Origin: Candidatus Omnitrophota bacterium
Lineage (GTDB): Bacteria; Omnitrophota; Gorgyraeia; Zapsychrales; Zapsychraceae
Direction of reading: 5' to 3'
Length of the DNA stretch: 64,000 bases
Assembly (NCBI GenBank): GCA_029261055.1
Contig: JAJDCA010000014.1
Span: 143,984 to 207,983, forward strand
Of the stretch, positions 16,578-64,000 are shown piece by piece. A model generated the notes under the pieces. That model had not been told where the DNA came from, did not search any database, and was given only the letters and a program-made list of their open reading frames with translations. The translations under genes were made by a program, and so were the position numbers. How positions within the stretch are numbered: position 1 is the stretch's first letter; every line of letters starts with the position of its first letter.

Positions 16578-16606
16578 TTGACATCGCAATATGCATATGG
16601 CATACT
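16578..16606 (+). promoter_or_regulatory. Candidate sigma70-type promoter in the 292-bp leader of the major pilin gene
   Basis: TTGACA (16578-16583), a 17-nt spacer, then CATACT (a 4/6 match to the -10 consensus). Confidence 0.3.
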
Positions 16607-16850
16607 TCAAGTAGAGTAATAAGGGATAAACAAAGGTAAACTACCTGTGAGGGTGGGGCACAAAACTATAGGGTCCCAAGATTAGTGTTGGGATAGCCAA
16701 GTTGCTACCGATAAGTATCGGTGTGAATCATGTGGACCTATTCTACGAAAGAGGTGGAATAGGTTTATTTTTTGGAAGGGAAGAAAAAGAGGACGTGAAA
16801 AGTAATAAAAACACAAATAAACATAAACACAAATTAGGAGGGAAGTAACA

Positions 16851-17279
16851 ATGGAATTGAGAAAATTAAAATCTAAAAAAAGTGGTTTTACATTACTGGA
16901 AATCATCGTGGTTATTATCATTGTTGGTGTTTTAGCTAGTTTAGCTTTACCGCGATTATTTAATACCATTGAACGAGCTCGATCGACAGAAGCATTTACA
17001 TCAATAGGCGTAATTCGTAAATCAGTTGAAAGATGTCTCTATCAAAATAATGCCGCTTTCTGTGGGAATATGACTAATTTAGATCTTCCTGATCCAGGGG
17101 CAATCCCAGGGGCGCATTTTACGTACACTATTGCTAATGTAGCTTTGCCGAACACTGTGACAGTAAAAGCTACACGTCTTGCTAATGTGGATGGTGGTGT
17201 TGCCACAGATTGGATTCAGCTTAAGGTGGATGGTACGGGTATTTTTCGAACCAGTACAACAATTTATGGTGTAAGATAA
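16851..17279 (+). CDS. pilA: Type IV major pilin (class III prepilin signal)
   Basis: Leader MELRKLKSKKSG, cleavage between G and F in GFTLLEIIVVIIIVGVLASLALP with Glu at +5. 142 aa with a C-terminal Cys pair. Confidence 0.85.
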   Translation: MELRKLKSKKSGFTLLEIIVVIIIVGVLASLALPRLFNTIERARSTEAFTSIGVIRKSVERCLYQNNAAFCGNMTNLDLPDPGAIPGAHFTYTIANVALPNTVTVKATRLANVDGGVATDWIQLKVDGTGIFRTSTTIYGVR

Positions 17280-17295
17280 AAAAGGTAAGGGGTCG

Positions 17296-17778
17296 GTGGA
17301 CTATCCATCGATCCCTTATATAAATTTTATGACAAATAATAAATTAAAGATTTCGAAAAAAGGATTCACCTTGGGAGAATTAATGGTGGTGGTGGTGATT
17401 GTGGGCGTCCTTGTGTCCATCGCCGTACCACAATATGGTGCAGCCATTGAAAGGATGAGGGCAGCTGAGGGGATTCAGATTCTAACCTCCTATTTACACG
17501 CTCAAGAGAGTTTTCGGCTAAGAAATGGTGGGACTTATGCCACAAACCTTCAAATTAATCAATTAGATATAATTTTGCCAACAGGTGCTGGAAGCTATTT
17601 TAATGCGCCTACTATCGCTAGTGCTAATCCAATTGTTAGTATTGCACGAAATGGTACTCAAAATCCGACTCCAAATTATGCGCTTACGATTAGTTCAACA
17701 GGGATTGTTTCCTGTAACGATGGAGGTGCAATGACCACTTGTACAAGATTGGGCTGTTCTGCAGGTGTCTGTAATTAA
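17296..17778 (+). CDS. Type IV pilin paralog
   Basis: KKGFTLGELMVVVVIVGVLVSIAVPQY prepilin N-terminus with a 22-aa leader if translation starts at 17296 (RBS aagggg 6 nt upstream). An alternative ATG at 17329 gives a shorter leader. C-terminal disulfide loop CTRLGCSAGVC. Confidence 0.8.
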   Translation: MDYPSIPYINFMTNNKLKISKKGFTLGELMVVVVIVGVLVSIAVPQYGAAIERMRAAEGIQILTSYLHAQESFRLRNGGTYATNLQINQLDIILPTGAGSYFNAPTIASANPIVSIARNGTQNPTPNYALTISSTGIVSCNDGGAMTTCTRLGCSAGVCN

Positions 17779-17808
17779 GCTAAAAATATTGAAGGGAATG
17801 TTAAGATT

Positions 17809-18246
17809 ATGATAATAAATTTTGTGAAAAGAAAGAAAGCCTTTACAATTACAGAACTTATGGTTTCAGTCATCATTATTGGGGTTATTGCTGGATTTGC
17901 GATACCTGATTATTTACGGTCAGTGCGGCGTGCTCATCAACAAGATATGTCTATGCAGCTCACGGCCTTGCATGCAGCGAGTATGATTTATCAATCTCAG
18001 AATGGAACATTTCTTGTAGAGACTAGTTTGCCATTAAATGGAACACCATCTATTAATAACGATTTGGGCATTAATATTATTTCTACAGATGGGACAAATT
18101 ATTCGTACACAAGTGATGGAACTAATTTTACAGCCACAGCAATTTGGAATTTTTCAACTGGCCCAGTAACTTTTCAAGTAGACCAAAGACCTATTTCAAC
18201 AACATCTGTTCCTCCGAATCCTCAATGTACGACAAACTGTTTATAG
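17809..18246 (+). CDS. Type IV pilin-like protein (Ala at -1 of the cleavage site)
   Basis: KKAFTITELMVSVIIIGVIAGFAIPDY: a hydrophobic N-terminal helix with Glu at +5. C-terminal CTTNC pair. Confidence 0.7.
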   Translation: MIINFVKRKKAFTITELMVSVIIIGVIAGFAIPDYLRSVRRAHQQDMSMQLTALHAASMIYQSQNGTFLVETSLPLNGTPSINNDLGINIISTDGTNYSYTSDGTNFTATAIWNFSTGPVTFQVDQRPISTTSVPPNPQCTTNCL

Positions 18247-45831: not shown

Positions 45832-45835
45832 TTAC

Positions 45836-45888
45836 GGGCATGATAAATCATGCCCGTACGGGGGGGTGTCATTTGTAGGGGCATGATT
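45836..45888 (+). repeat. Two tandem near-identical hairpins in the gatA-gatB spacer
   Basis: gggcatga-taaa-tcatgccc (45836-45855) and gggcatga-ttca-tcatgccc (45869-45888). The 8-bp stems are identical and they are separated by a G-rich 13-nt linker (45856-45868). Confidence 0.6.
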
Positions 45889-45917
45889 CATCATGCCCTT
45901 TAACGCCATTTAATTTT

Positions 45918-51283: not shown

Positions 51284-54200
51284 ATGAAAAAAATGTGTAA
51301 AATAATCATTTTTCGTGTTTTTGTGTGGTTAATCTTTTTTATCTTTATGGTTCAAGGGATAGGGCCTTTGCCATTGTCCCATGCTCAGACATCTATGCCT
51401 ATCGAAGGTTCTGGTGTGCAAGGTTTACGTTTGGGGTTAACACCAATGTTTACACCTGTTTTGCTTAAAGGGATTAAAATTTTCCCGAGTAATCCATTTC
51501 AGTTTGAGTTTATGGTGGGTGCGGGCAATACGGTTGTGCAGGGTGATTTACTCAAAAAAGAATCATCCCGGCTTGTTAAATACTTTTTAACATCCCTTAC
51601 AGTCCCGGATGCAGATTTGTGGGTTAATCTTTCTCCAGACGAACCAGATCGGATTATTCCCGAGCAATTTGGTCAAACCGAAATGGGACGTGACCTGTTG
51701 GCACAGGACTACAGGCTGAAACAAATCACAGCATCATTGATGTATCCGGAAGATGAGTTAGGGGAAGAATTTTGGGATCAGGTGTATGAGCAGGTGTATC
51801 AAGAATATGGAACAATGAATATTCCGATTGATATGCTTAACAAAGTTTGGATTGTGCCGGAGAAAGCCGTTGTCTACGAGAATGTAGAAATGAACACGGC
51901 ATTTGTGCTGGAATCACGGTTGCGTGTTATGCTGGAAGAAGATTATGTAGGGGAGGGGCTTGCCCCCTCCCGTATTACGGGCAGACGCAAGGCCCGCCCC
52001 TACAGTAATTCTAATAAGATTTCCACCGCAGTCATCCGTAAAATTATTATTCCCGCCATTGAACGCGAAGTTAATCATGGACAGGGATTTTCTAAATTAC
52101 GCCAAATTTACCATTCCTTGATTCTTGCCACATGGTTTAAGCGCAATCTTAAGAAGTCTATTTTGAGTCAGATCTATGTGGGTCAAAATAAAATTACAGG
52201 TGTAGATATCCATGACAAACAAGCGAAAGATAAACTTTACCATCAATATTTAAAGGCCTTTCAGAAGGGGGCATACAACTACATCAAAGAAGATTACGAC
52301 CCGGTTACTCAGCAAATCGTACCCAGGAAGTATTTTTCAGGAGGGATTGAGTTGGCGATGCTTTCTTCAGGAAAAAAAGTTTTTGAGGCATTAGATGCGG
52401 CCATGCAGGTTACGAAAGAAATTTCGGATCAGTTGTTAAAAGAAATAACAGGGAAAACAGCAAGTTTTAAAGTACCTGTAAAGATTCTTCCAGAATCGGG
52501 GAAGGACACAAAAGGGACAAATTTAGGAATTTTTACAGCAAAAAAACAAAAGAAATTTAGAAATATTATTAATCCTAAAAAAGTAAAAACAGCGGAAGAT
52601 TTAGTCCGCATTATTGAGCAAATAAAAAAGGATAATATCCCAAAGGAAAGAAATTATTCCAAATACAGCCGCGTTTTAATAACCGGAATATCCATTCTTT
52701 CGCATGAATTGTACCAGCCATACCTTAATGATTTAGCCCGTATTAAGCTGAATGAGCTTAATACATTGGAAATTGACATCCAGGAATCTGACTTTAATTG
52801 GACAAAAGATATGCTGCATAGATTGCAAGTTTTAGCCAATTTTATCCCAACCATCGAAAATCCTAATGAGGACTTATTTATTGATGTTTTTGCAGGTTTT
52901 ACGGATGAACAGATAAAGATACTAGCAAATTCAGGGGATTTTCTGGATTTACAATTAAGTAAAAATTGTGTGCATCAATGTCTGTTTTGTAATGTTTCAA
53001 AGAATACGATACAAGGGGCCCCACGGCATATGCCATTTTCTCTTGCCATCAAAATAGCAAAGCGGATTCGTCGAGAAGGGCAATCTAATGTAAGTTTATA
53101 TCGGAAGAGCGACCCTTTGCATTATCATGACAAGGTCATTAATGCCACGTATGGTGATGTTGCTAGGCACTTAATTCCACTAGGGTATTATCTTTCTACA
53201 ATAACGCATGGGGATACAGGTGTTTTAGGGGAAGAGAATATGCGAGAAATTGTAAAAAGGTTTCCTCCATCCTTGTGGGGGCTCGAATTTAGTTTAAATG
53301 CTTATTATGCGAATGTAAAAAGGTATGCAATCAAAAAGGTGAATGGTGAAATAGATGCTGCGGAGGATGATGAAGTTAGGCAAAAACTTGTAAAGCCATA
53401 TGTGGATAATTTTGCTTCATTATTAGTAGAGCTTATTCCACAGGTTGAAGTAGACATAAGAGATCTTTTTTATGGTAAAAAAGTCGAGAAAATTTTGGAA
53501 GGGGCTGGTTTGCAGTTTGCGCTATCTGTTGTCAAAGAAATGCAATCTGTGCAAAATAAAATTTGGGAAGATGTCGGTAAAATTGTTTTTGAAAAAACAG
53601 GAAAATATATTCCTGTAAAGCATGATTTTGAATTTACAAGTGGCATTCGTTTTACTTATGATATGGTTTGGGAAAGTGATGCTGTATCATTTTTAAAAGA
53701 GTTAGGTGTTAAGGAAGATATTATTAGAGGCATTAATAAAAGTACACAAAGAGGGTTAGATGATCGTACTGAAGGCGAAAATTTTGTTTTACAGATTAAT
53801 ACAAATGGTTCTTTGTCATTACGAGTTGCAGAGGCTGAGGATCTTCGATTTAGAACCTTTGAAGAAATGTTTACGAGCGCTGATGCGGAAGGATTTCGCT
53901 CTTTTTTAGAGGTTATTAAAATTGTTCTTAAAACAAATTCTTTTAAATTTGATAAACAAATGGATGCAAAAGTATTAAGAAAAGATGTTAGTAAGGGGGT
54001 GCTTAAAAAATTATTTAAGAATGCTCTTAATTCCTCGGAAGATATTGAGAAATTCTTAATTAATAGAAGTTATTTGGTGAAAGGTTCAACACTTCAAACA
54101 TTCCACTATTTTGAAGTATTATTTGGTTTTTTTTATTCTAAAGAAGACATGTTGGCTGATTTGAAAAATAAGAAGTTTGAAGATATGTTTGAGAAATTAA

Positions 54201-54757
54201 AAAAAGTGCCTTTTCCTATTGGGGTAGACTTTTTTGTTAAGTTTAAACAAAAACAGTTTTTAGATAGGTATTCTTACCGAATTATTAAGGATCAGCATCC
54301 AAGATATCCGAGAAATATTAATCAATCAGTTCGTCATTTCAATTTGTCAAAAAATGTATTTTCCTCATTAAGAGAAAATAATCCTCTTGAAATTGAATAT
54401 GAAAAGTTAGAACGCCCGTCATTTATTGATGAAAGCAACCAAACTGCTTTTTATGATTCGGCACTTCTTGCAGACGGGCTTAATGAGAAATTTGGCGGGA
54501 TTGATTTGACTGCGGATAGTTTGCCTTTGCAGGCACGTGGAGAGGGAATTGAGTTTAAGTTTCCTTCTAACAGTAATATTCCTTGTTTCGATGATGACAA
54601 CGACGGTACCTGTGACCGTATTGATGTAGAAGGGCTTGCTACTATGTCCATCACGGGATTTCGGCCGGAGTTTTTTGAAATTGTGCCGGTGAATAGTGTG
54701 TCGGGATGGTTGGGCATTTCAGTGCAACGACCAACCATCCCAGATCTGTCTTTATGA
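51284..54757 (+). CDS. Giant hypothetical protein (1157 aa) with an N-terminal signal or anchor sequence and a central CX3CX2C motif
   Basis: Long uninterrupted ORF. N-terminus MKKMCKIIIFRVFVWLIFFIFMVQG. About 560 aa in: SKNCVHQCLFCNV (CX3CX2C), followed about 40 aa later by SDPLHY, which recalls the radical-SAM GGEPL position. No other family is recognisable by eye. Confidence 0.6.
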   Translation: MKKMCKIIIFRVFVWLIFFIFMVQGIGPLPLSHAQTSMPIEGSGVQGLRLGLTPMFTPVLLKGIKIFPSNPFQFEFMVGAGNTVVQGDLLKKESSRLVKYFLTSLTVPDADLWVNLSPDEPDRIIPEQFGQTEMGRDLLAQDYRLKQITASLMYPEDELGEEFWDQVYEQVYQEYGTMNIPIDMLNKVWIVPEKAVVYENVEMNTAFVLESRLRVMLEEDYVGEGLAPSRITGRRKARPYSNSNKISTAVIRKIIIPAIEREVNHGQGFSKLRQIYHSLILATWFKRNLKKSILSQIYVGQNKITGVDIHDKQAKDKLYHQYLKAFQKGAYNYIKEDYDPVTQQIVPRKYFSGGIELAMLSSGKKVFEALDAAMQVTKEISDQLLKEITGKTASFKVPVKILPESGKDTKGTNLGIFTAKKQKKFRNIINPKKVKTAEDLVRIIEQIKKDNIPKERNYSKYSRVLITGISILSHELYQPYLNDLARIKLNELNTLEIDIQESDFNWTKDMLHRLQVLANFIPTIENPNEDLFIDVFAGFTDEQIKILANSGDFLDLQLSKNCVHQCLFCNVSKNTIQGAPRHMPFSLAIKIAKRIRREGQSNVSLYRKSDPLHYHDKVINATYGDVARHLIPLGYYLSTITHGDTGVLGEENMREIVKRFPPSLWGLEFSLNAYYANVKRYAIKKVNGEIDAAEDDEVRQKLVKPYVDNFASLLVELIPQVEVDIRDLFYGKKVEKILEGAGLQFALSVVKEMQSVQNKIWEDVGKIVFEKTGKYIPVKHDFEFTSGIRFTYDMVWESDAVSFLKELGVKEDIIRGINKSTQRGLDDRTEGENFVLQINTNGSLSLRVAEAEDLRFRTFEEMFTSADAEGFRSFLEVIKIVLKTNSFKFDKQMDAKVLRKDVSKGVLKKLFKNALNSSEDIEKFLINRSYLVKGSTLQTFHYFEVLFGFFYSKEDMLADLKNKKFEDMFEKLKKVPFPIGVDFFVKFKQKQFLDRYSYRIIKDQHPRYPRNINQSVRHFNLSKNVFSSLRENNPLEIEYEKLERPSFIDESNQTAFYDSALLADGLNEKFGGIDLTADSLPLQARGEGIEFKFPSNSNIPCFDDDNDGTCDRIDVEGLATMSITGFRPEFFEIVPVNSVSGWLGISVQRPTIPDLSL

Positions 54758-55443: not shown

Positions 55444-55477
55444 AAAATATTCCTTTCGAGTGAACCGTACACAAACC

Positions 55478-56425
55478 TCATGCAGACCCCCGAGGTTTGT
55501 GTCTGGTTACAAAGTCAATAACAGTATCTTCTAAACGGCCGTTGTTCAGCCGGTTGATTTCTTGTAAACAGGTAGGGGAGGTGACATTGACTTCGATGAG
55601 ATGATCACCGATTACGTCGATGCCTACAAAGTGCAACCCCAGTTTTTGTAAATGCGGTTTGAGAATTTGAATGATTGCCTCATCCCGCTTGGTTATTTCG
55701 GCGGGCATGGGTTTGCCGCCGGCAAAAAAATTGTTACGGTGTTCATCTTTTGCGTGCACACGCAATACCGCTCCGAGAGGGTCGCCATTAAGAAGAAGGA
55801 TGCGTTTATCGCCTTGGCTGGCTTCAGGTAAACATTGTTGCAGGATAATATCCTGAGCGCCATTGTGTGTTAAGGTTTCGATGATGACGCCAATATTTGT
55901 GTCGCCTTCACGGATACGAAAGATACCTTGGCCACCGTAGCCATTGATGGGCTTGGTGACGATTTCTTTTTCTTCAGATAAAAAGGCAAGGATGTCTGCT
56001 TTATTGCGTGTGATCAGGGTTCGGGGAATGAGCGAAGAAAATTGTGTCACCCAAATTTTCTCATTCGTCGTACGAATACCATTGGGGCTGTTCATGACAA
56101 GAATGCGTTCAGGCAATAAATCCAAGAGCCAGGTATTAAATAAATATTGAGCATCAAAAGGTGGATCATTGCGGATGAATACGGCATCAATGCTGTCTTC
56201 CGTTAAGGTAGCCATTTCATGTTGAATAAAGGGCTGTTCAGCGACTTGCTGGGGTGTGACTTCCGTGCAAGTAAAATGAAGTTTCCCATTTTTTTGTGTC
56301 AGTCCACCATTGTGGCAGGCATACACCTTGTGCCCTTTGCGATGGGCGCCGAGCATTAGAATAAACGATGTGTCTTTCTCCATGATGACGGTATGGAGAG
56401 GGTCCATGAGGAATACAAAATTCAT
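55478..56425 (-). CDS. gshB: Glutathione synthetase (prokaryotic ATP-grasp GshB)
   Basis: Aligns along its length with E. coli GshB: MDPLHTVIMEKDTSF, IRNDPPFD, LITRNKADILAF, GDKRILLLNGDP, VGIDVIGDHLIEVNVTSPTC. Confidence 0.9.
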   Translation of the reverse strand: MNFVFLMDPLHTVIMEKDTSFILMLGAHRKGHKVYACHNGGLTQKNGKLHFTCTEVTPQQVAEQPFIQHEMATLTEDSIDAVFIRNDPPFDAQYLFNTWLLDLLPERILVMNSPNGIRTTNEKIWVTQFSSLIPRTLITRNKADILAFLSEEKEIVTKPINGYGGQGIFRIREGDTNIGVIIETLTHNGAQDIILQQCLPEASQGDKRILLLNGDPLGAVLRVHAKDEHRNNFFAGGKPMPAEITKRDEAIIQILKPHLQKLGLHFVGIDVIGDHLIEVNVTSPTCLQEINRLNNGRLEDTVIDFVTRHKPRGSA

Positions 56426-57726: not shown

Positions 57727-57783
57727 AAAATAAGGGGATTGTCGAGGCTAAAATGTTGGGGCTAACCGTAAACGAACCAGGTA

Positions 57784-59025
57784 CTACTTGGTTTGTTTGT
57801 GGTTTACAAGTTTTTGCACGACCATGCTGCCGATGGTGTCGCCTTCGACATTGACGGTGGTGCGGATAGCATCAAGGATGCGGTCGATGGGGAGAAGGAT
57901 GGCAATCGCTTCAGCCGGGAGGCCGACGGATTGCAGGACCATCACCATCGTTACCATGCCGGCACTTGGAATGCCTGGTGCACCAATGGCGGCAATGATG
58001 GCGGTGAAAAAGACAACGAGTTGTTGAACAATATTAAGATCAATACCCATGATGTTGGCCACAAAAAGAGCAGCCACGGCTTCGTAAAGAGCGGTGCCGT
58101 CCATGTTAATGGTGGCCCCTAAGGGCAGAACAAATCCAGCCACATCTTTGTCGACTTTTAAATTGTTTTCGACACAACGCATGGTAATCGGCAGTGTCGC
58201 AGAACTTGAACTTGTTGAGAACGCTGTTACGAGAGCTTCACGAATTCCGCCTAAGAATTTTAAAGGGCTGAATTGTGTGACGGCAAACAAGATTGTTGGT
58301 AGAGTTACAATGCCATGAAATAGTGTAGCCCCAATCACGACGGCCATGAATTTACCTAGAGCAGACAGGAGTGTGACGTCTTGTGTCGCAATTAATTTTA
58401 TCAAAAGGGCCATGATGCCGATGGGGGCAATACGCATGATCCAGCCGACCATCATCATGATGAGCTCAAAAAATTCATTGAGAATGTTAAGGATATTTTT
58501 AGCTTTTTGACCAGCCATGACAAGGGCAATACCTAAAAGTAAGGCAAATAAAACGGTGGGTAAAACTTTTCCTTGAGCCATGGCTGCAAAAGGATTCATA
58601 AAGAGATTAGAAAAAAATGTTTGAATGAATTGAGAGAGCGTAACAGAGTCAGCAGAAAATGAGGCCATTGCATCCTGAAATAAAGCAACTTCAAGGCCAA
58701 CGCCGGGTTTAAATACGTTAACGACAATCAAGCCCAGGAGGACAGAAAGGGCTGTTGTGGAAATAAAATACACAAGGGATAGCTTCCAAACACGATCCAT
58801 TTGCGCGTGTGCCCGCAGGTTAGCAATACCCACGGTAATAGAGGTAAAGACGAGCGGAATCAAAATCATTTTTAAAAGATCAATGAAAATACCGCCTGCA
58901 ATTGTGCAGCCGTAAAGCGTGGGGGAGTAGACCGCATGTTCAGCTCCCAAGCGGCTTAAAATTAGCCCACCGAAAATGCCAATTACGGCGCCAGTCAGGA
59001 TTTGGAAGTTTAAGGAAAGTTTCAT
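57784..59025 (-). CDS. Dicarboxylate/amino acid:cation symporter (DAACS/SDF family)
   Basis: 413 aa with eight TM segments and re-entrant loops (SSSSATLPITMRC, GATINMDGTALYEAVAALFVANI). The substrate is not assignable; a TcyP-like cystine transporter is possible. Confidence 0.8.
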   Translation of the reverse strand: MKLSLNFQILTGAVIGIFGGLILSRLGAEHAVYSPTLYGCTIAGGIFIDLLKMILIPLVFTSITVGIANLRAHAQMDRVWKLSLVYFISTTALSVLLGLIVVNVFKPGVGLEVALFQDAMASFSADSVTLSQFIQTFFSNLFMNPFAAMAQGKVLPTVLFALLLGIALVMAGQKAKNILNILNEFFELIMMMVGWIMRIAPIGIMALLIKLIATQDVTLLSALGKFMAVVIGATLFHGIVTLPTILFAVTQFSPLKFLGGIREALVTAFSTSSSSATLPITMRCVENNLKVDKDVAGFVLPLGATINMDGTALYEAVAALFVANIMGIDLNIVQQLVVFFTAIIAAIGAPGIPSAGMVTMVMVLQSVGLPAEAIAILLPIDRILDAIRTTVNVEGDTIGSMVVQKLVNHKQTK

Positions 59026-59134
59026 TCAGAAATGGCCTCATTATTTAATTTCTTTAATGATTTAAAAATAGAATAGCAGTTTTTCTTAAAAGTACAACCA
59101 AAATTCTTACAGTCAGGGGTAATTTGAGTGGGCC

Positions 59135-59172
59135 TAGTTGTGAAATTGCCCTGCGGGGCAACTTCACAAGTC
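59135..59172. promoter_or_regulatory. Inverted-repeat operator-like element, copy 1 of 2
   Basis: TGTGAAATTGCCC-tgcg-GGGCAACTTCACA: 13-bp arms with one mismatch around a 4-bp spacer. Lies in the divergent intergenic region between the DAACS transporter and tolC. Confidence 0.5.
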
Positions 59173-59316
59173 TGTTAAAATTAAATTTTTTGTGTTAAAG
59201 GTGGGGTAGGTTAGGTTTAATTATTCTTTGAATAATGATGTGTCTTTATGTTGCTAAAATCTTGATTTGTACATTTATTCGTCGGTATTTTTAAGATTAT
59301 TTTCATTAGAATTAAT

Positions 59317-59340
59317 AAGTACGTACGCGCGTACGTACTT
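59317..59340. repeat. 22-bp perfect palindrome of alternating purine/pyrimidine
   Basis: AGTACGTACGCGCGTACGTACT (59318-59339) is its own reverse complement; 24 bp if the flanking A/T pair is included. The 16-bp core acgtacgcgcgtacgt is strictly alternating purine/pyrimidine. Confidence 0.7.
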
Positions 59341-59364
59341 TATTGTCGGGAATATGGGGTGGAA

Positions 59365-59400
59365 AGTTATGAAATTGCCCCGTGGGGCAACTTTACAACT
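59365..59400. promoter_or_regulatory. Inverted-repeat operator-like element, copy 2 of 2
   Basis: TATGAAATTGCCC-cgtg-GGGCAACTTTACA, about 90% identical to copy 1 as a direct repeat 226 bp downstream. The core TTGCCC-N4-GGGCAA is perfect in both copies. Confidence 0.5.
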
Positions 59401-59423
59401 AGGATTTTATTGAGATTTATTGA

Positions 59424-59458
59424 AACCGTAAACACACCCCGGGGGTCTGTTTACGGTT
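59424..59458 (+). promoter_or_regulatory. Strong hairpin 44 nt upstream of the tolC ATG
   Basis: aaccgtaaaca-(13-nt loop cacccc ggggg tc)-tgtttacggtt: a perfect 11-bp stem with no T-tract after it. Confidence 0.5.
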
Positions 59459-59501
59459 AGTTTACACTTGACATTAAATTGCATGTAATTAAGATGAAGG
59501 C

Positions 59502-60974
59502 ATGTTTTTTACTAAAAATTTAATTGTATTAATTATTTTTAGCATCATTTTTTTAGGGGGATGGGTTGAAGGGGAATGTGCGGATTACACTCTCTCCCTG
59601 GAAAAAACAACGCAGCTGGCCCTTCAAAATAATTTTGACATTCAACTCGCGAAATACGATGCTTGGATTGCCCGGACGGACAAAAAAGTAGCGGAGTCTA
59701 TTTACGACACTATTTTTGAGGCCGAAGTCCAATACCGTGACAATCAGAAAAAACGCACCTCGACAATCATTGGTACGCAGGCCTTGGACAATGATTACAA
59801 TATTGGACTTTCAAAAAAATTACCTACCGGGACAACACTTGAAGTTGATCTAATGAACAGTCGTAACTTTACAGATTCAGTATTTACTACGTCACCCTTA
59901 ACGCATGATTCGACCTTAGGGATGACAATTACGCAGGAATTAGGAAAGAATTTTTTTGGCCTTCGTGATCGTTGGGGTATTAAGATTGCGTTGGTGGATA
60001 TTGAAAATAGTGAGTACACGTCACTTGAGAAAATTGAAGAAGAAATTTCTGATGTACAGAAGGCGTATTGGGATTTAGTGCTTCAGATTGAACGTGTTAA
60101 AATTGAACAAGACATGGTGGATCAAGCCAAACGTTTGTACGATTTGCATCAGGAAAAATTGAAGGATGGTCTGGTGGAGATGCCGGATGTTTTGGCGTCG
60201 CAAGCAAATTACGAAAAGAGTAAAAATGATTTGATCTTTGCAGAGAATCAAGTGCATGCCAAAGAAAATGTGCTGCGATTGCTTTTAAACATTTCCGATG
60301 ATCACATCCGTATTCTTCCGACAGACACCTTTGCGCTTCCTGAACTCCAAAGGCCATTAGCGCCTACCCTTAAGAAAGCTTTTGAAAACCGTCGTGATTA
60401 CAAGCGGGCGGTTAATGATGTGAAGTCGAAGGACATTCAGCTAACCGTTAAAAAAAATAATTTGTGGCCGGAAATTAATTTAACGGCTTCTTTAGAGCGT
60501 AACGGCCTCGGAGATCATTTTAAACCGGCGGTTGAAAATATTACGAGGGAAGACAATCCAAATTTATTTGCTGGGCTGACCATTAACATTCCATTAGAAA
60601 ATCGTGCGGCGCGCGGAGCAAAGAAAGCGGCTGAATTAGAAAAAGCCAAGACTTTGGTGGCTTTAAAATTGCTTGAACGCAAAATTACCCTTGAGGTTGT
60701 CGATCAAGTCCGTGACAGTAATGTGTTTGCTGAGCTGGCCGACAACAGCGAACACATCGCCAATCTGCAAGCGCAGAAGTTGGAAGAGGAAGGTAAGCGA
60801 TTCCGTCAGGGCCGTTCCGACACAGATACCCTCATTCGTTTTCAGAAAGATGTTGTTCAGGCAAGAGCCGAAGCGGCCGCAGCCAAGCACCGTTACCATG
60901 CCGCGATGGTGGATTTAGAAACCAGAAGCGGGGTGCTTTTGGGGAAGTATTTTGACTTAAGTGCTAAGTGGTAA
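59502..60974 (+). CDS. tolC: TolC-like outer membrane efflux protein (OEP family)
   Basis: 490 aa with a signal peptide and two OEP repeats with coiled-coil segments. Immediately upstream of an RND pump gene. Confidence 0.8.
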   Translation: MFFTKNLIVLIIFSIIFLGGWVEGECADYTLSLEKTTQLALQNNFDIQLAKYDAWIARTDKKVAESIYDTIFEAEVQYRDNQKKRTSTIIGTQALDNDYNIGLSKKLPTGTTLEVDLMNSRNFTDSVFTTSPLTHDSTLGMTITQELGKNFFGLRDRWGIKIALVDIENSEYTSLEKIEEEISDVQKAYWDLVLQIERVKIEQDMVDQAKRLYDLHQEKLKDGLVEMPDVLASQANYEKSKNDLIFAENQVHAKENVLRLLLNISDDHIRILPTDTFALPELQRPLAPTLKKAFENRRDYKRAVNDVKSKDIQLTVKKNNLWPEINLTASLERNGLGDHFKPAVENITREDNPNLFAGLTINIPLENRAARGAKKAAELEKAKTLVALKLLERKITLEVVDQVRDSNVFAELADNSEHIANLQAQKLEEEGKRFRQGRSDTDTLIRFQKDVVQARAEAAAAKHRYHAAMVDLETRSGVLLGKYFDLSAKW

Positions 60975-61035: not shown

Positions 61036-64000
61036 ATGAAACTCGCTCAATTTTCTGTTAGAAATTCTTTACTCATCAATGTCTTGTCGTTGTTTATTCT
61101 TGTGGCTGGGTTTTACAGCATGATGAAGATGCGGCGTGAGGCGTTTCCGCAGGTTAATTACGACATTGTTACCATTAATACCATCTATTCTGGAGCCCCT
61201 ACCGAAGATGTAGAAAAATTAGTCACACTGCCTTTGGAAGAAGAAATTCGCGGCATCAGCGGGATTGACAAGATTAATTCTACATCTGAAGAAGGTATTT
61301 CCTCTATTGGAATTATTTTAGACCCTTCTGTAAAAAATAAAATCAAAGTGGTTAATGACATTCAGCGTGCGGTTGATCAAGTGCGTAATTTACCGGAAGG
61401 CGCGGAAGATCCTGTGGTCTTTGAGCTGGACACACGCGAGTTGCCGATTTTGGAGATTTCGCTTAGTGGGGATGTTTCTGAGTCTGAACGGCGGCTGTAT
61501 GCGGAATCATTAGAAGACAAAATTTTGGAGATTGATGGGGTGGCTTCTGTTAACCGTATTGGTTGGCGCGACAAAGAATTTTGGGTGGAGGCAGATCCGG
61601 ATAAATTAAAACAGAATCATGTTTCGATTCAGGAAATCATGGATGCTCTGCGGACGCGCAACCGGACTATTCCCGGAGGGCAGCTGACGACCCCGACGGC
61701 GGAATTTAACATTCGCACCACCGGAGAATTTACGACTTCTGAAGAAATCGAAGATGTCATCATCCGGGCGAATGATGCGGGTAATTGGCTTAAAGTTAAA
61801 GATGTCGCTCATGTGAAGGATACTTTTGAGGATGAAACACGGATTGCCAAAGTTCGAGGGGAGCGGGCCACGGCCATGGTGGTTGTCAAACGTGAGTTGG
61901 CGGATGCCATCAGTTTAGTGCGCGAGGTGCATCTCACGATTGATGCGTTTAAGCAAAAGCTTCCTGAGGGCATGGATGTGACCATTACCAATGATCTTTC
62001 GTATTACATTAAGCGGCGACTGAGTGTATTAAAAAATAATGGTATCATTGGCATCATTCTTGTTTTGTTAATTTTGTTTATCTTTTTAGATCCTATTCCG
62101 GCTGTTGCCACAGCGCTTGGGTTGCCGATTGCTTTTTTCCTTACCTTTATTGTCATGTCCATCATGGGGGTGAGTATTAATCTTGTAACCATGCTGGGAT
62201 TGATTATTGTGCTTGGGATGCTGGTGGACGATGGGATTATTGTGTCGGAAAATGTGTACAGGTATGTGGAAAGTGGCATGTCACCCAGGGAGGCGGCCTT
62301 GCGTGGGACGAGTGAGGTCATGATTCCGGTGACGGTAACGATTCTGACGACCTTTGCCGCATTCTCACCGCTTTTGTTTATGACCGACATCATTGGTAAA
62401 TTTATCCGGTACATTCCGATTGTGGTGATGGTCGCCTTGGCGGCGTCTTTGTTTGAGGCCTTTGTGATTTTACCGGCGCATCTTTCAGATTTTGTAAGGG
62501 TTAAGGCTAAGAATGCTTCGGGAAAAGTGAAATCGGAAAAAAAATGGCTGAAAGGGTTGGTTAATTTTTACACGAAGACATTAAATGTTGCGTTGCGGTT
62601 TAGGTATTTGGTTTTATTGTGGCTTGTTTTATGTCTGGCTATGGCCATGTGGATCGTAAAAAATAAGATGCAGATTGTCATGTTTGCCGGTGAGGGCATT
62701 GAGTATTTTTATGTGCGCGCTGAGTCGCAGAAGGGAACGCCGCTTGAAACATTGAATAAATTGATTGCGCCCGTGGAGGATTTGATTGCTACGTTAGATG
62801 ATCATGAACTGGATTCTTTTCGGACGTATTTAGGAAGCATTGAGCAGGAGGGCGGGTTTGATCCGAATGTCAAACGGGGTAGTCATTTGGGGCAACTCAC
62901 GGTGTTTTTGACGCCATTACAGAAGCGCAAACGAACTCCGCAGGAAATCATTGATGCTTTACGGCCGGGATTGGAAAAGATTAAGGGGTTTGAGAAATTG
63001 TACTTCTTTTTGCCGAAGGAAGGGCCTCCGACAGGGAATCCTGTTGAGGTAGCGGTTAAGGGGGAAGATTTTGGTGTCTTGCAAAAAATTGCAGACCGTT
63101 TTGTGAAATATTTAGAGCCGGTTGAAGGGGTTTCGGATGTGAACACGAGTTACGATTTTGGTAAGAAGCAGCTACGCGTGGTTGTGGATGAAGCCAAGGC
63201 GAAGAGATATTTTCTAACCGTCGGCAAGATTGCAGCAGCGGTGCGCAATACGTTTCGGGGTGGCGTGGCGACAACCATTAAACCGACGAAGGCGGAAGAG
63301 GAAATTAATGTGTTGGTGCGTTTTCCGAAGGCCTTGCGTGAAGACCTTAAGGCCTTTGACAAAATTCTAATTCCTAATCAGTTCGATAATTTAGTGCCGT
63401 TGAGTTCTGTGGCACAGATTGAAGAGAGCGAAGGCGTTTACAAGATTACACATCTGGATGGCAAACGCGTTATTTATGTAACAGCACAGGTTGACAACAA
63501 GAAGGCCACTTCGCTTGGGGTGAATTTGCAATTACAAAAAGAATTTCAGGATATCGGCCAGCAATATTTAGGGTACACAGTTAAATACAGTGGTGAATTC
63601 GAAGATCAGCAAAAATCGATTAAGAATTTACAGACATCATTTTTATTTGCTTTGGCGGCCATTTTTATTATTTTAGTAGCCATGTTTCGTTCTTTGATTC
63701 AGCCGTTTATTGTGATGATGGCGATTCCTTTTGGTGTTGTCGGTGTTATTTTTGCTTTTTATGCGCATGGACGTCCTTTGAGTTTCTTTGCTTTCATGGG
63801 GCTGGTAGGGTTGACCGGGATTGTGGTCAATGATTCGATTGTGCTGGTGGATTTTATTAATCGTCTGCGTATCCAGGGTAAGGAGCGTCGGGACTCCCTT
63901 ATTGAAGCCGGTCAGATTCGTCTGCGTCCAGTCATCATGACCACGGTCACGACTATTGGAGGGTTGGTTTCCGTAGCTTACGGTATTGGTGGTGGCGACC
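61036..64000 (+). CDS. RND-family efflux transporter (AcrB/HAE-type inner membrane pump), 3'-partial at the window end
   Basis: The frame is open from ATG 61036 to the window edge. N-terminus MKLAQFSVRNSLLINVLSLFILVAGF, then a periplasmic porter domain, then the TM2-6 block (GLPIAFFLTFIVMSIMGVSINLVTMLGLIIVLGMLVDDGIIVSENV). Confidence 0.9.
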   Translation, partial: MKLAQFSVRNSLLINVLSLFILVAGFYSMMKMRREAFPQVNYDIVTINTIYSGAPTEDVEKLVTLPLEEEIRGISGIDKINSTSEEGISSIGIILDPSVKNKIKVVNDIQRAVDQVRNLPEGAEDPVVFELDTRELPILEISLSGDVSESERRLYAESLEDKILEIDGVASVNRIGWRDKEFWVEADPDKLKQNHVSIQEIMDALRTRNRTIPGGQLTTPTAEFNIRTTGEFTTSEEIEDVIIRANDAGNWLKVKDVAHVKDTFEDETRIAKVRGERATAMVVVKRELADAISLVREVHLTIDAFKQKLPEGMDVTITNDLSYYIKRRLSVLKNNGIIGIILVLLILFIFLDPIPAVATALGLPIAFFLTFIVMSIMGVSINLVTMLGLIIVLGMLVDDGIIVSENVYRYVESGMSPREAALRGTSEVMIPVTVTILTTFAAFSPLLFMTDIIGKFIRYIPIVVMVALAASLFEAFVILPAHLSDFVRVKAKNASGKVKSEKKWLKGLVNFYTKTLNVALRFRYLVLLWLVLCLAMAMWIVKNKMQIVMFAGEGIEYFYVRAESQKGTPLETLNKLIAPVEDLIATLDDHELDSFRTYLGSIEQEGGFDPNVKRGSHLGQLTVFLTPLQKRKRTPQEIIDALRPGLEKIKGFEKLYFFLPKEGPPTGNPVEVAVKGEDFGVLQKIADRFVKYLEPVEGVSDVNTSYDFGKKQLRVVVDEAKAKRYFLTVGKIAAAVRNTFRGGVATTIKPTKAEEEINVLVRFPKALREDLKAFDKILIPNQFDNLVPLSSVAQIEESEGVYKITHLDGKRVIYVTAQVDNKKATSLGVNLQLQKEFQDIGQQYLGYTVKYSGEFEDQQKSIKNLQTSFLFALAAIFIILVAMFRSLIQPFIVMMAIPFGVVGVIFAFYAHGRPLSFFAFMGLVGLTGIVVNDSIVLVDFINRLRIQGKERRDSLIEAGQIRLRPVIMTTVTTIGGLVSVAYGIGGGD

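Follow-up and report, generated by a model that had tools for sequence, protein, structure and literature searches.

The stretch of DNA analysed here, 64,000 nucleotides of contig JAJDCA010000014.1 from a Candidatus Omnitrophota bacterium (hereafter the window), is core chromosome that includes uvrA, type IV pilus/type II secretion genes, recA-recX, alaS, the his operon, trpE, secDF, mfd, gatA/gatB and tsaD. Two operons in this region are transcribed away from each other across an intergenic spacer that holds a perfect palindrome, which is the subject of this report (Table 1). The operon on one side carries SDF, gshA and gshB, whereas the operon on the other side begins with tolC and continues with a gene for an AcrB-type RND pump on the plus strand (start near 61036). 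The palindrome lies 291 bp from the SDF start codon.

Table 1. Features of the divergent spacer and related palindromes. Positions refer to the window unless a contig is named.
Feature	Positions	Strand	Size	Description
Perfect palindrome AAGTACGTACGCGCGTACGTACTT	59317-59340	none	24 bp	Zero spacer
Strictly alternating purine/pyrimidine run	59319-59338	none	20 nt	Longest in the window; next longest 14 nt
Extended imperfect dyad	59313-59345 (about)	none		A-rich left flank pairs with T-rich right flank; one bulged base
Divergent intergenic spacer	59026-59501		476 bp	Holds the palindrome
SDF gene	57784-59025	-		Sodium:dicarboxylate symporter family (dicarboxylate/amino-acid symporter); first gene of the SDF-gshA-gshB operon
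tolC	59502-60974	+		TolC-like outer-membrane efflux gene; start codon 161 bp from the palindrome
Sigma-70-like promoter TTGACA-16-TAAGAT	59468-59495	+		10/12 consensus matches; directly before the tolC start codon
Hairpin A	59133-59169	none		(CCTAG)TTGTGAAATTGCCC-TGCG-GGGCAACTTCACAA; RNA hairpin -19.6 kcal/mol, z -4.8
Hairpin B	59365-59403	none		88% identical to A over 34 nt
Hairpin C	59424-59458	none		AACC...GGTT family (AACCGTAAACAnACC...GGTnTGTTTACGGTT)
Second AACC...GGTT copy	57764-57804	none		Between SDF and gshA
Third AACC...GGTT copy	55463-55508	none		3' end of gshB
Perfect palindrome TAACCCTTTACACACATCGGGTGTCTGCAGACACCCGATGTGTGTAAAGGGTTA	952-1005 of L041		54 bp	AACC...GGTT type; between two ABC genes of a relative

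The sequence of the palindrome can be parsed as AA-(GTAC)2-GCGC-(GTAC)2-TT, and its central 10 nucleotides read TACGCGCGTA. The original prediction for this site, made from the nucleotide sequence without database searches, described a 22-bp perfect palindrome (AGTACGTACGCGCGTACGTACT), which is indeed present at positions 59318-59339 and forms part of a perfect dyad that reaches 24 bp. Strict alternation of purines and pyrimidines had also been claimed for all 22 nucleotides. This description is too generous: alternation is confined to 20 nucleotides, since the A-G and C-T steps at the two ends interrupt it. The AT-rich intergenic setting was correctly recognized, in that the spacer apart from the palindrome is 33% GC and the palindrome itself is 50% GC.

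No other perfect palindrome in the window is as long, and the runners-up measure 16 bp. Given the base frequencies of the window, palindromes of at least 24 bp are expected 0.006 times per 64 kb, and this length was reached in only one of 200 first-order Markov simulations. Extrapolation of the chance expectation to a genome of 2-3 Mb yields approximately 0.2-0.3 such palindromes. At the scale of the whole genome, the palindrome is therefore unusual and yet could represent a single chance occurrence. No further match was found in the window with up to three mismatches, and none of 100 shuffled sequences produced a match.

Four palindromic units, namely the palindrome and hairpins A, B and C, are packed into the spacer. 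The palindrome had been described as lying between two operator-like inverted repeats, and its position between A and B agrees with this statement. However, these repeats are two copies of one hairpin unit, a finding that favours a group of extragenic palindromes over a series of operators. The A/B unit (34-37 nt) is represented in the window by these two copies alone, and the sequences that flank A and B share no significant extended homology. The hairpin C family has three representatives, two of which are located outside the spacer within 4 kb, and hairpins of the AACC...GGTT type were absent from all 50 shuffled sequences. Another local grouping, a hairpin doublet (GGGCATGAT...ATCATGCCC), occurs at 45833-45858 and 45877-45900, within the 86 bp that separate gatA from gatB. 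The A/B, AACC...GGTT and gatA/gatB hairpins together indicate that extragenic hairpins form several small families in this genome, with the members of each clustered locally. Scans of IMG/VR with the A/B hairpin and with the C hairpin returned no matches.

Hairpins A and B can also be viewed as the ends of a larger element. They form a 37-nt inverted pair that is 84% complementary and encloses 197 nt, and the segment from 59133 to 59403 folds far better than shuffled sequences (z -6 to -10). The palindrome would then be the interior of a 271-bp element resembling a miniature inverted-repeat transposable element (MITE), with A and B as its terminal inverted repeats, and a break in a public assembly close by, at position 59428, is in keeping with such a structure. 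However, each arm is already a palindrome, and therefore the inverted match between A and B follows from the direct repetition of a self-complementary unit. Although inverted repeats are formally present, a target-site duplication is missing, no significant similarity links the sequences around A and B, and no other copy was found in IMG/VR or in 69 kb of this genome (the window plus 5 kb beyond it, which is the extent searched throughout). There is also no transposase gene in the window. A MITE-like origin is consequently very improbable.

Two further observations concern the A/B unit. The outer arms of hairpin A (59138-59169) carry TTGTGAA...TTCACAA separated by 18 nt, and these arms are degenerate in copy B. 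These heptamers are half-sites of the box bound by the Rex redox repressor, but the gap in a Rex box is 4 nt rather than 18 nt. In addition, CTAG is present at the left end of hairpin A and at the right end of hairpin B. This tetranucleotide is strongly under-represented in the window as a whole (observed/expected ratio 0.58), as is TATA (0.31), and these are the only two depleted sites.

The organization of this locus appears to be recent. The nearest database homologues of the flanking proteins are 68% identical (TolC) and 81% identical (SDF), and no close relative is present in the databases. On the SDF side, the gene order SDF-gshA-gshB-grx-bolA-grx is conserved in one relative (L040), whereas co-oriented ABC transporter genes lie upstream of the SDF orthologue in two others (L041 and L042). 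On the tolC side, three relatives (L036, L037 and L039) carry marR before tolC, and a fourth (L038) has tolC without marR behind a short spacer that contains no palindrome. Because relatives have ABC genes on one side and marR on the other, the head-to-head junction of SDF and tolC is specific to this lineage. In relatives, the upstream neighbours of both TolC and SDF differ from those found here, and none of them possesses an orthologous spacer. No gene for a periplasmic adaptor is found between tolC and the RND pump gene, either here or in the three relatives with marR.

One of these relatives provides a direct view of how such sequences can be acquired. The 54-bp perfect palindrome of L041 separates two ABC genes that are only 3 nt apart in the sister contig L042, where the palindrome is missing. 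Perfect AACC...GGTT palindromes with zero spacer thus have been gained by insertion in this clade.

We tentatively interpret the palindrome as a solitary unit resembling repetitive extragenic palindromic (REP) sequences, which acts, if at all, as a hairpin-forming element at the DNA level; this assignment is the most parsimonious one, but it is possible rather than established. It draws on the repeated copies of hairpins A/B and C around the palindrome, on the insertion seen in L041, on the lack of conservation of the SDF/tolC junction, on the absence of transcription factor, recombinase or transposase genes beside the spacer and on the 127 bp that separate the palindrome from the only strong promoter. 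It would be one of four units in a lineage-specific spacer formed where two operons met head-to-head, and it probably arose by insertion or local duplication of self-complementary GTAC/CG units rather than as a conserved binding site for a protein. Like REP sequences, it is extragenic, falls within the size range of 20-40 nt and is predicted to form a stable stem-loop, with a folding energy of -13.2 to -13.3 kcal/mol as RNA (either strand) and -8.2 kcal/mol as DNA. If the bulged base in the flanks is allowed, then the stem grows to 14 bp and the dyad to about 31-33 bp overall. Any effect on the neighbouring operons would probably be structural. When transcribed in either direction, the element could fold into a 10-14-bp stem of about -13 kcal/mol with a U-rich tail behind it. 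Such a structure might act as a weak pause or stop site for stray transcripts and thereby contribute to insulating the two divergent promoters. On DNA, the same sequence might absorb negative supercoiling generated between these promoters. None of the evidence requires a sequence-specific regulatory role.

Several observations weigh against this interpretation. Neither the palindrome nor its half-site AAGTACGTACGC has a second copy in the 69 kb, and membership in a REP-like family, whose hallmark is the presence of many copies of one unit per genome, is therefore not demonstrated. A genome-wide copy count had been suggested for this site; as carried out on the 69 kb and on public sequence collections, it revealed no second copy and no homologous copy. 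The alternating GTAC/CGCG sequence differs from those of the other hairpin families, and the palindrome is perfect through its centre, whereas mismatches and asymmetric loops occur in the hairpins around it. REP-type elements of Escherichia coli reside mostly in transcribed 3' regions and not between divergent promoters. No gene with a Pfam annotation in the 69 kb encodes a REP-associated tyrosine transposase (RAYT; IS200/IS605-like).

A simple scan marks the palindrome as terminator-like on both strands, with an A-rich 5' flank and a U-rich 3' flank. However, its d'Aubenton-Carafa scores of -8.5 (plus strand) and -18 (minus strand) are below threshold and counter the REP-like reading, even though they are the best or tied-best among the hairpins of the spacer. 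For comparison, two plausible terminators in the window, those of secDF and of a riboswitch, score +47 and +7.5, respectively. Moreover, the flanking genes diverge, such that no transcription unit ends at the palindrome and no gene upstream of it requires termination. The spacer also contains no plausible ORF and no RNA recognized by Rfam that would place a 3' end there.

Additional searches of the spacer likewise failed to uncover a gene or a mobile element. Its open reading frames (ORFs) are limited to spurious ones of 22-48 amino acids without a Pfam match, and blastn comparison with phages and plasmids yielded only chance AT-rich matches, all with E values of at least 0.1. The sole Rfam match in the window at gathering thresholds is a c-di-GMP-I riboswitch that lies outside the spacer. 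Under permissive settings, the spacer matches MicC, a candidate that was rejected because its score of 28.7 bits is far below the gathering threshold of 90 and because it aligns mainly through its terminator hairpin and U-tail. No regulator, recombinase or transposase gene adjoins the spacer among ORFs of at least 120 amino acids on the gene strands, a few of which lack a Pfam match.

The reality of the palindrome as natural DNA was considered as well. Its flanks are ordinary spacer DNA and, to our knowledge, its sequence resembles no synthetic linker, adapter or Hi-C junction; an artefact of this type was rejected. The only Logan contig that was found for this region is identical to the window and begins at 59428, and hence it does not reach the palindrome. 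Look-ups with the SDF and gshA proteins for an independent assembly gave no match. The Logan assembly concerned (SRR15505515; L009/L043) breaks inside hairpin C and again inside a tRNA gene approximately 9.7 kb downstream, and it did not yield the spacer that bears the palindrome.

A different possibility is that the palindrome serves as the operator of a dimeric transcription factor that is encoded elsewhere in the genome and controls tolC-RND, SDF-gshAB or both, replacing the MarR/operator pair of the relatives. The promoter of marR in L036, L037 and L039 carries a conserved dyad (TTAGCnATGCTAATATTTAG...GCTAAC) that is unrelated to the palindrome. This genome lacks both marR and the TTAGC...GCTAA operator found before tolC in these three relatives, and tblastn searches of the window with the MarR proteins of relatives detected no remnant of the gene. 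An attempt to align the tolC promoter with the marR promoters of relatives was unconvincing, and homology between them was rejected. The palindrome is a perfect dyad situated in a divergent regulatory spacer, and its 24 bp fall within the 16-28 bp expected of operators. QacR IR1 is a long palindromic operator for an efflux repressor. Another efflux-pump operator of similar style is the AcrR site, which has the same length of 24 bp (TACATACATTTGTGAATGTATGTA; PMC10597343).

The only strong promoter of the spacer is that of tolC, which is located 127 bp from the palindrome, and the start codons of tolC and SDF are 161 bp and 291 bp away from it. Only weak promoter candidates (8-9 of 12 consensus matches) are found near the palindrome, and one of these, the minus-strand candidate TTTCCA-17-TAAAGT (8/12), places its -10 element at the palindrome edge. 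No regulator gene, including any of the MarR or TetR type, is adjacent to the spacer or among the annotated genes near it, and no further half-sites are present in the 69 kb. The relative L038, which also lacks marR, has no such palindrome. Because relatives carry either TTAGC...GCTAA operators or no palindrome, and a like-for-like spacer is absent, conservation cannot be invoked in support of an operator. An operator function is unlikely, although it is one of the two main rivals of the REP-like reading.

Promoters of the same canonical type as that of tolC precede recA (TTGACA-17-TATAAT, 22140) and the c-di-GMP-I riboswitch (TTGACA-17-CATACT, 16578) elsewhere in the window. The riboswitch (16625-16709, 49.7 bits) is preceded by its sigma-70-like promoter (16578-16606) and followed by a terminator hairpin (16732-16768), and the entire region (16578-16850) is positioned upstream of three genes for pilin-like proteins with N-terminal methylation motifs (16851-18246). 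Also in the window, positions 51284-54757 encode a protein of 1157 amino acids whose sole Pfam signal is a weak, sub-threshold match to radical SAM (23.5 bits against a cut-off of 29.5).

The palindrome might instead be a neutral product of replication slippage or short tandem duplication that has experienced no selection and has no function. Its core, (GTAC)2-GCGC-(GTAC)2, corresponds to 1.67 copies of the 12-mer GTACGTACGCGC, and decomposition into GTAC and GC units accounts for palindromy and alternation together. Searches for the exact 20-mer in other genomes are informative in this regard. We identified eight loci in 596 Gb of GTDB species-representative genomes, of which six are in Streptomyces and a related actinomycete, one is in a metagenome-assembled genome (MAG) of Stappiaceae and one is in a Saccharibacteria MAG. 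A further 26 loci were found in JGI metagenome contigs, several of them inside GTAC or GT microsatellites. None of these loci has flanks like those of the window, and an 18-mer search of IMG/VR gave no match. For a random 20-mer, approximately 0.5 occurrences would be expected in 596 Gb, and the eight observed therefore exceed this naive expectation roughly 15-fold by our estimate. Such recurrence fits a sequence that arises easily, because tandem self-complementary GTAC/CG units are automatically both palindromic and alternating.

Repeated independent appearance, including two full copies of the 12-mer in Saccharibacteria and several distinct contexts in Streptomyces, is consistent with a slippage origin, as is the status of the palindrome as a singleton in a young, non-conserved spacer. 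However, the palindrome is not embedded in a microsatellite, Tandem Repeats Finder detects no repeat at the site, and GTACGTAC is found nowhere else in the window. The 50% GC content of the palindrome and its six CpG steps also contrast with the remainder of the spacer, which is 33% GC. In addition, the Saccharibacteria block that contains the repeat is conserved across diverged contigs, which suggests that it has a function there. We regard a purely neutral slippage product, the other main rival, as rather unlikely.

Two of these occurrences in other genomes have features of their own. In two Streptomyces species, the 20-mer is located in the kdpD-kdpE spacer, approximately 20 bp before the kdpE start codon (L001 6952-6971; L007 4287-4306). 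In four Saccharibacteria contigs (L008, L010 3446-3469, L021 and L027), two copies in series, (GTACGTACGCGC)x2, lie within a conserved block of approximately 70 bp. In L010, the sole annotated contig among them, this block resides in a long divergent spacer upstream of nucleotidyltransferase (MNT)/HEPN gene pairs and is unrelated to the window.

The original prediction also attributed Z-DNA and cruciform potential to the palindrome and proposed a supercoiling-sensitive role. The longest alternating run in the window, which includes a CGCGCG core, and a perfect 24-bp inverted repeat without a spacer are the sequence properties expected of such structures, and a Z-DNA or cruciform element between divergent promoters is physically plausible judging from these properties. 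The twin-domain model predicts that negative supercoiling accumulates between divergently transcribed operons, which is where the palindrome is situated. A structure of this kind could buffer or couple the two promoters in response to supercoiling. However, CG repeats cover only 6 bp, GTAC steps are poor Z-formers, and arms of 12 bp are close to the shortest that extrude as cruciforms. The DNA hairpin is of modest stability, and the palindrome is not conserved. We consider a supercoiling-responsive switch improbable.

Roles as a recognition site for DNA-modifying or recombining enzymes were also considered. If the palindrome were a restriction/modification target, then its component sites might be avoided elsewhere, but in the window they occur at 0.8-1.4 of Markov expectation (GTAC 0.81, CGCG 0.82, ACGT 0.85 and GCGC 1.06, with TACGTA and CGTACG at or above expectation), and this proposal finds no support. 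A role in replication can be set aside in similar fashion, because GC skew is positive over the whole window without a switch, as would mark an origin or terminus. The window contains no tRNA gene, and a tRNA-associated integration site was rejected on this ground.

A hairpin-forming or site-specific recombinase might nonetheless use the palindrome as a resolution site in the manner of a protelomerase. Its central decamer TACGCGCGTA is the shared centre of the telRL site of phage N15 and the pal site of PY54 (PMC3540006), and just as telRL has additional flanking repeats (PMC12624138), the palindrome is flanked by hairpins A and B. However, identity to these sites ends at 10 bp, the palindrome measures 24 bp rather than the 42-56 bp of sites with arm repeats, and its flanks are asymmetric. 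Protelomerase sites belong to phage or plasmid replicons that encode the enzyme, whereas no recombinase or protelomerase domain was detected in genes annotated across the 69 kb, the neighbouring genes are core chromosomal with no GC-skew switch, and the 18-mer is absent from IMG/VR. The match was noticed in retrospect, out of the many palindromic sites that are known; we treat it as a coincidence that merits mention and not as evidence, and the recombinase or replication site that had been suggested comes down to this one coincidence. We consider such a target extremely improbable. Even the broader proposition of a dedicated DNA-structure element on a bacterial chromosome, whether a cruciform/Z-DNA switch that couples the divergent operons or the target of a recombinase with the shared decamer core, is distinctly improbable.

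Overall, the original prediction correctly identified the palindrome as real, non-random and located in a divergent spacer beside inverted repeats, but the roles it proposed are unevenly supported. If the palindrome is a plain extragenic palindrome, then its value is descriptive only. Uncultured Omnitrophota would carry small local families of hairpins and palindromes that are gained by insertion and collect at rearrangement junctions, and knowledge of these families would be useful for annotation and for judging breaks in assemblies. If it were instead the target of a protein or a supercoiling-responsive structure, then it would constitute a natural case of gene control through DNA structure in the space separating divergent promoters, from a phylum that has no genetic system. 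The evidence presented here does not support this latter view.

Comparisons with well-studied systems help to place the palindrome. Rahmouni and Wells reportedly placed Z-DNA-forming (CG)n inserts upstream of promoters in plasmids. The palindrome similarly provides an alternating tract at a location where transcription generates negative supercoils, but it is natural, includes just three CG repeats flanked by GTAC, and is known from its sequence alone. With the N15 telRL and PY54 pal sites (PMC3540006), it shares an identical central decamer and alternating pyrimidine-purine steps at the dyad, whereas it is shorter, lacks matching arms and a protelomerase gene, and resides among chromosomal housekeeping genes. 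The resemblance to efflux operators of the AcrR type (PMC10597343) includes the 24-bp dyad, its alternating purine/pyrimidine character and the divergent spacer upstream of tolC-RND. Unlike these operators, the palindrome has no adjacent gene of the TetR or MarR type and does not overlap the strong promoter of the spacer, and relatives of this genome use MarR with an unrelated operator.

Bidirectional intrinsic terminators have a comparable layout, in which, on each strand, a stem of 10-14 bp is preceded by A-rich and followed by U-rich sequence. The MicC match, itself sub-threshold, covers chiefly the hairpin and U-tail with which that small RNA terminates. The palindrome departs from them in its sub-threshold scores, in its interrupted U-tract and in the lack of any transcription unit that ends there. 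Relative to the REP sequences and bacterial interspersed mosaic elements (BIMEs) of Enterobacteria and Pseudomonas, the palindrome differs in being single-copy in the 69 kb, perfect through its centre and composed of alternating GTAC/CG, and in occupying the space between divergent promoters rather than a transcribed 3' region. Nevertheless, like REP and BIME units, it is short (within the 20-40 nt range), lies outside genes, could fold into a hairpin and is clustered with other units, its neighbours belong to small families, and a related palindrome is present or absent at an orthologous site in a relative.

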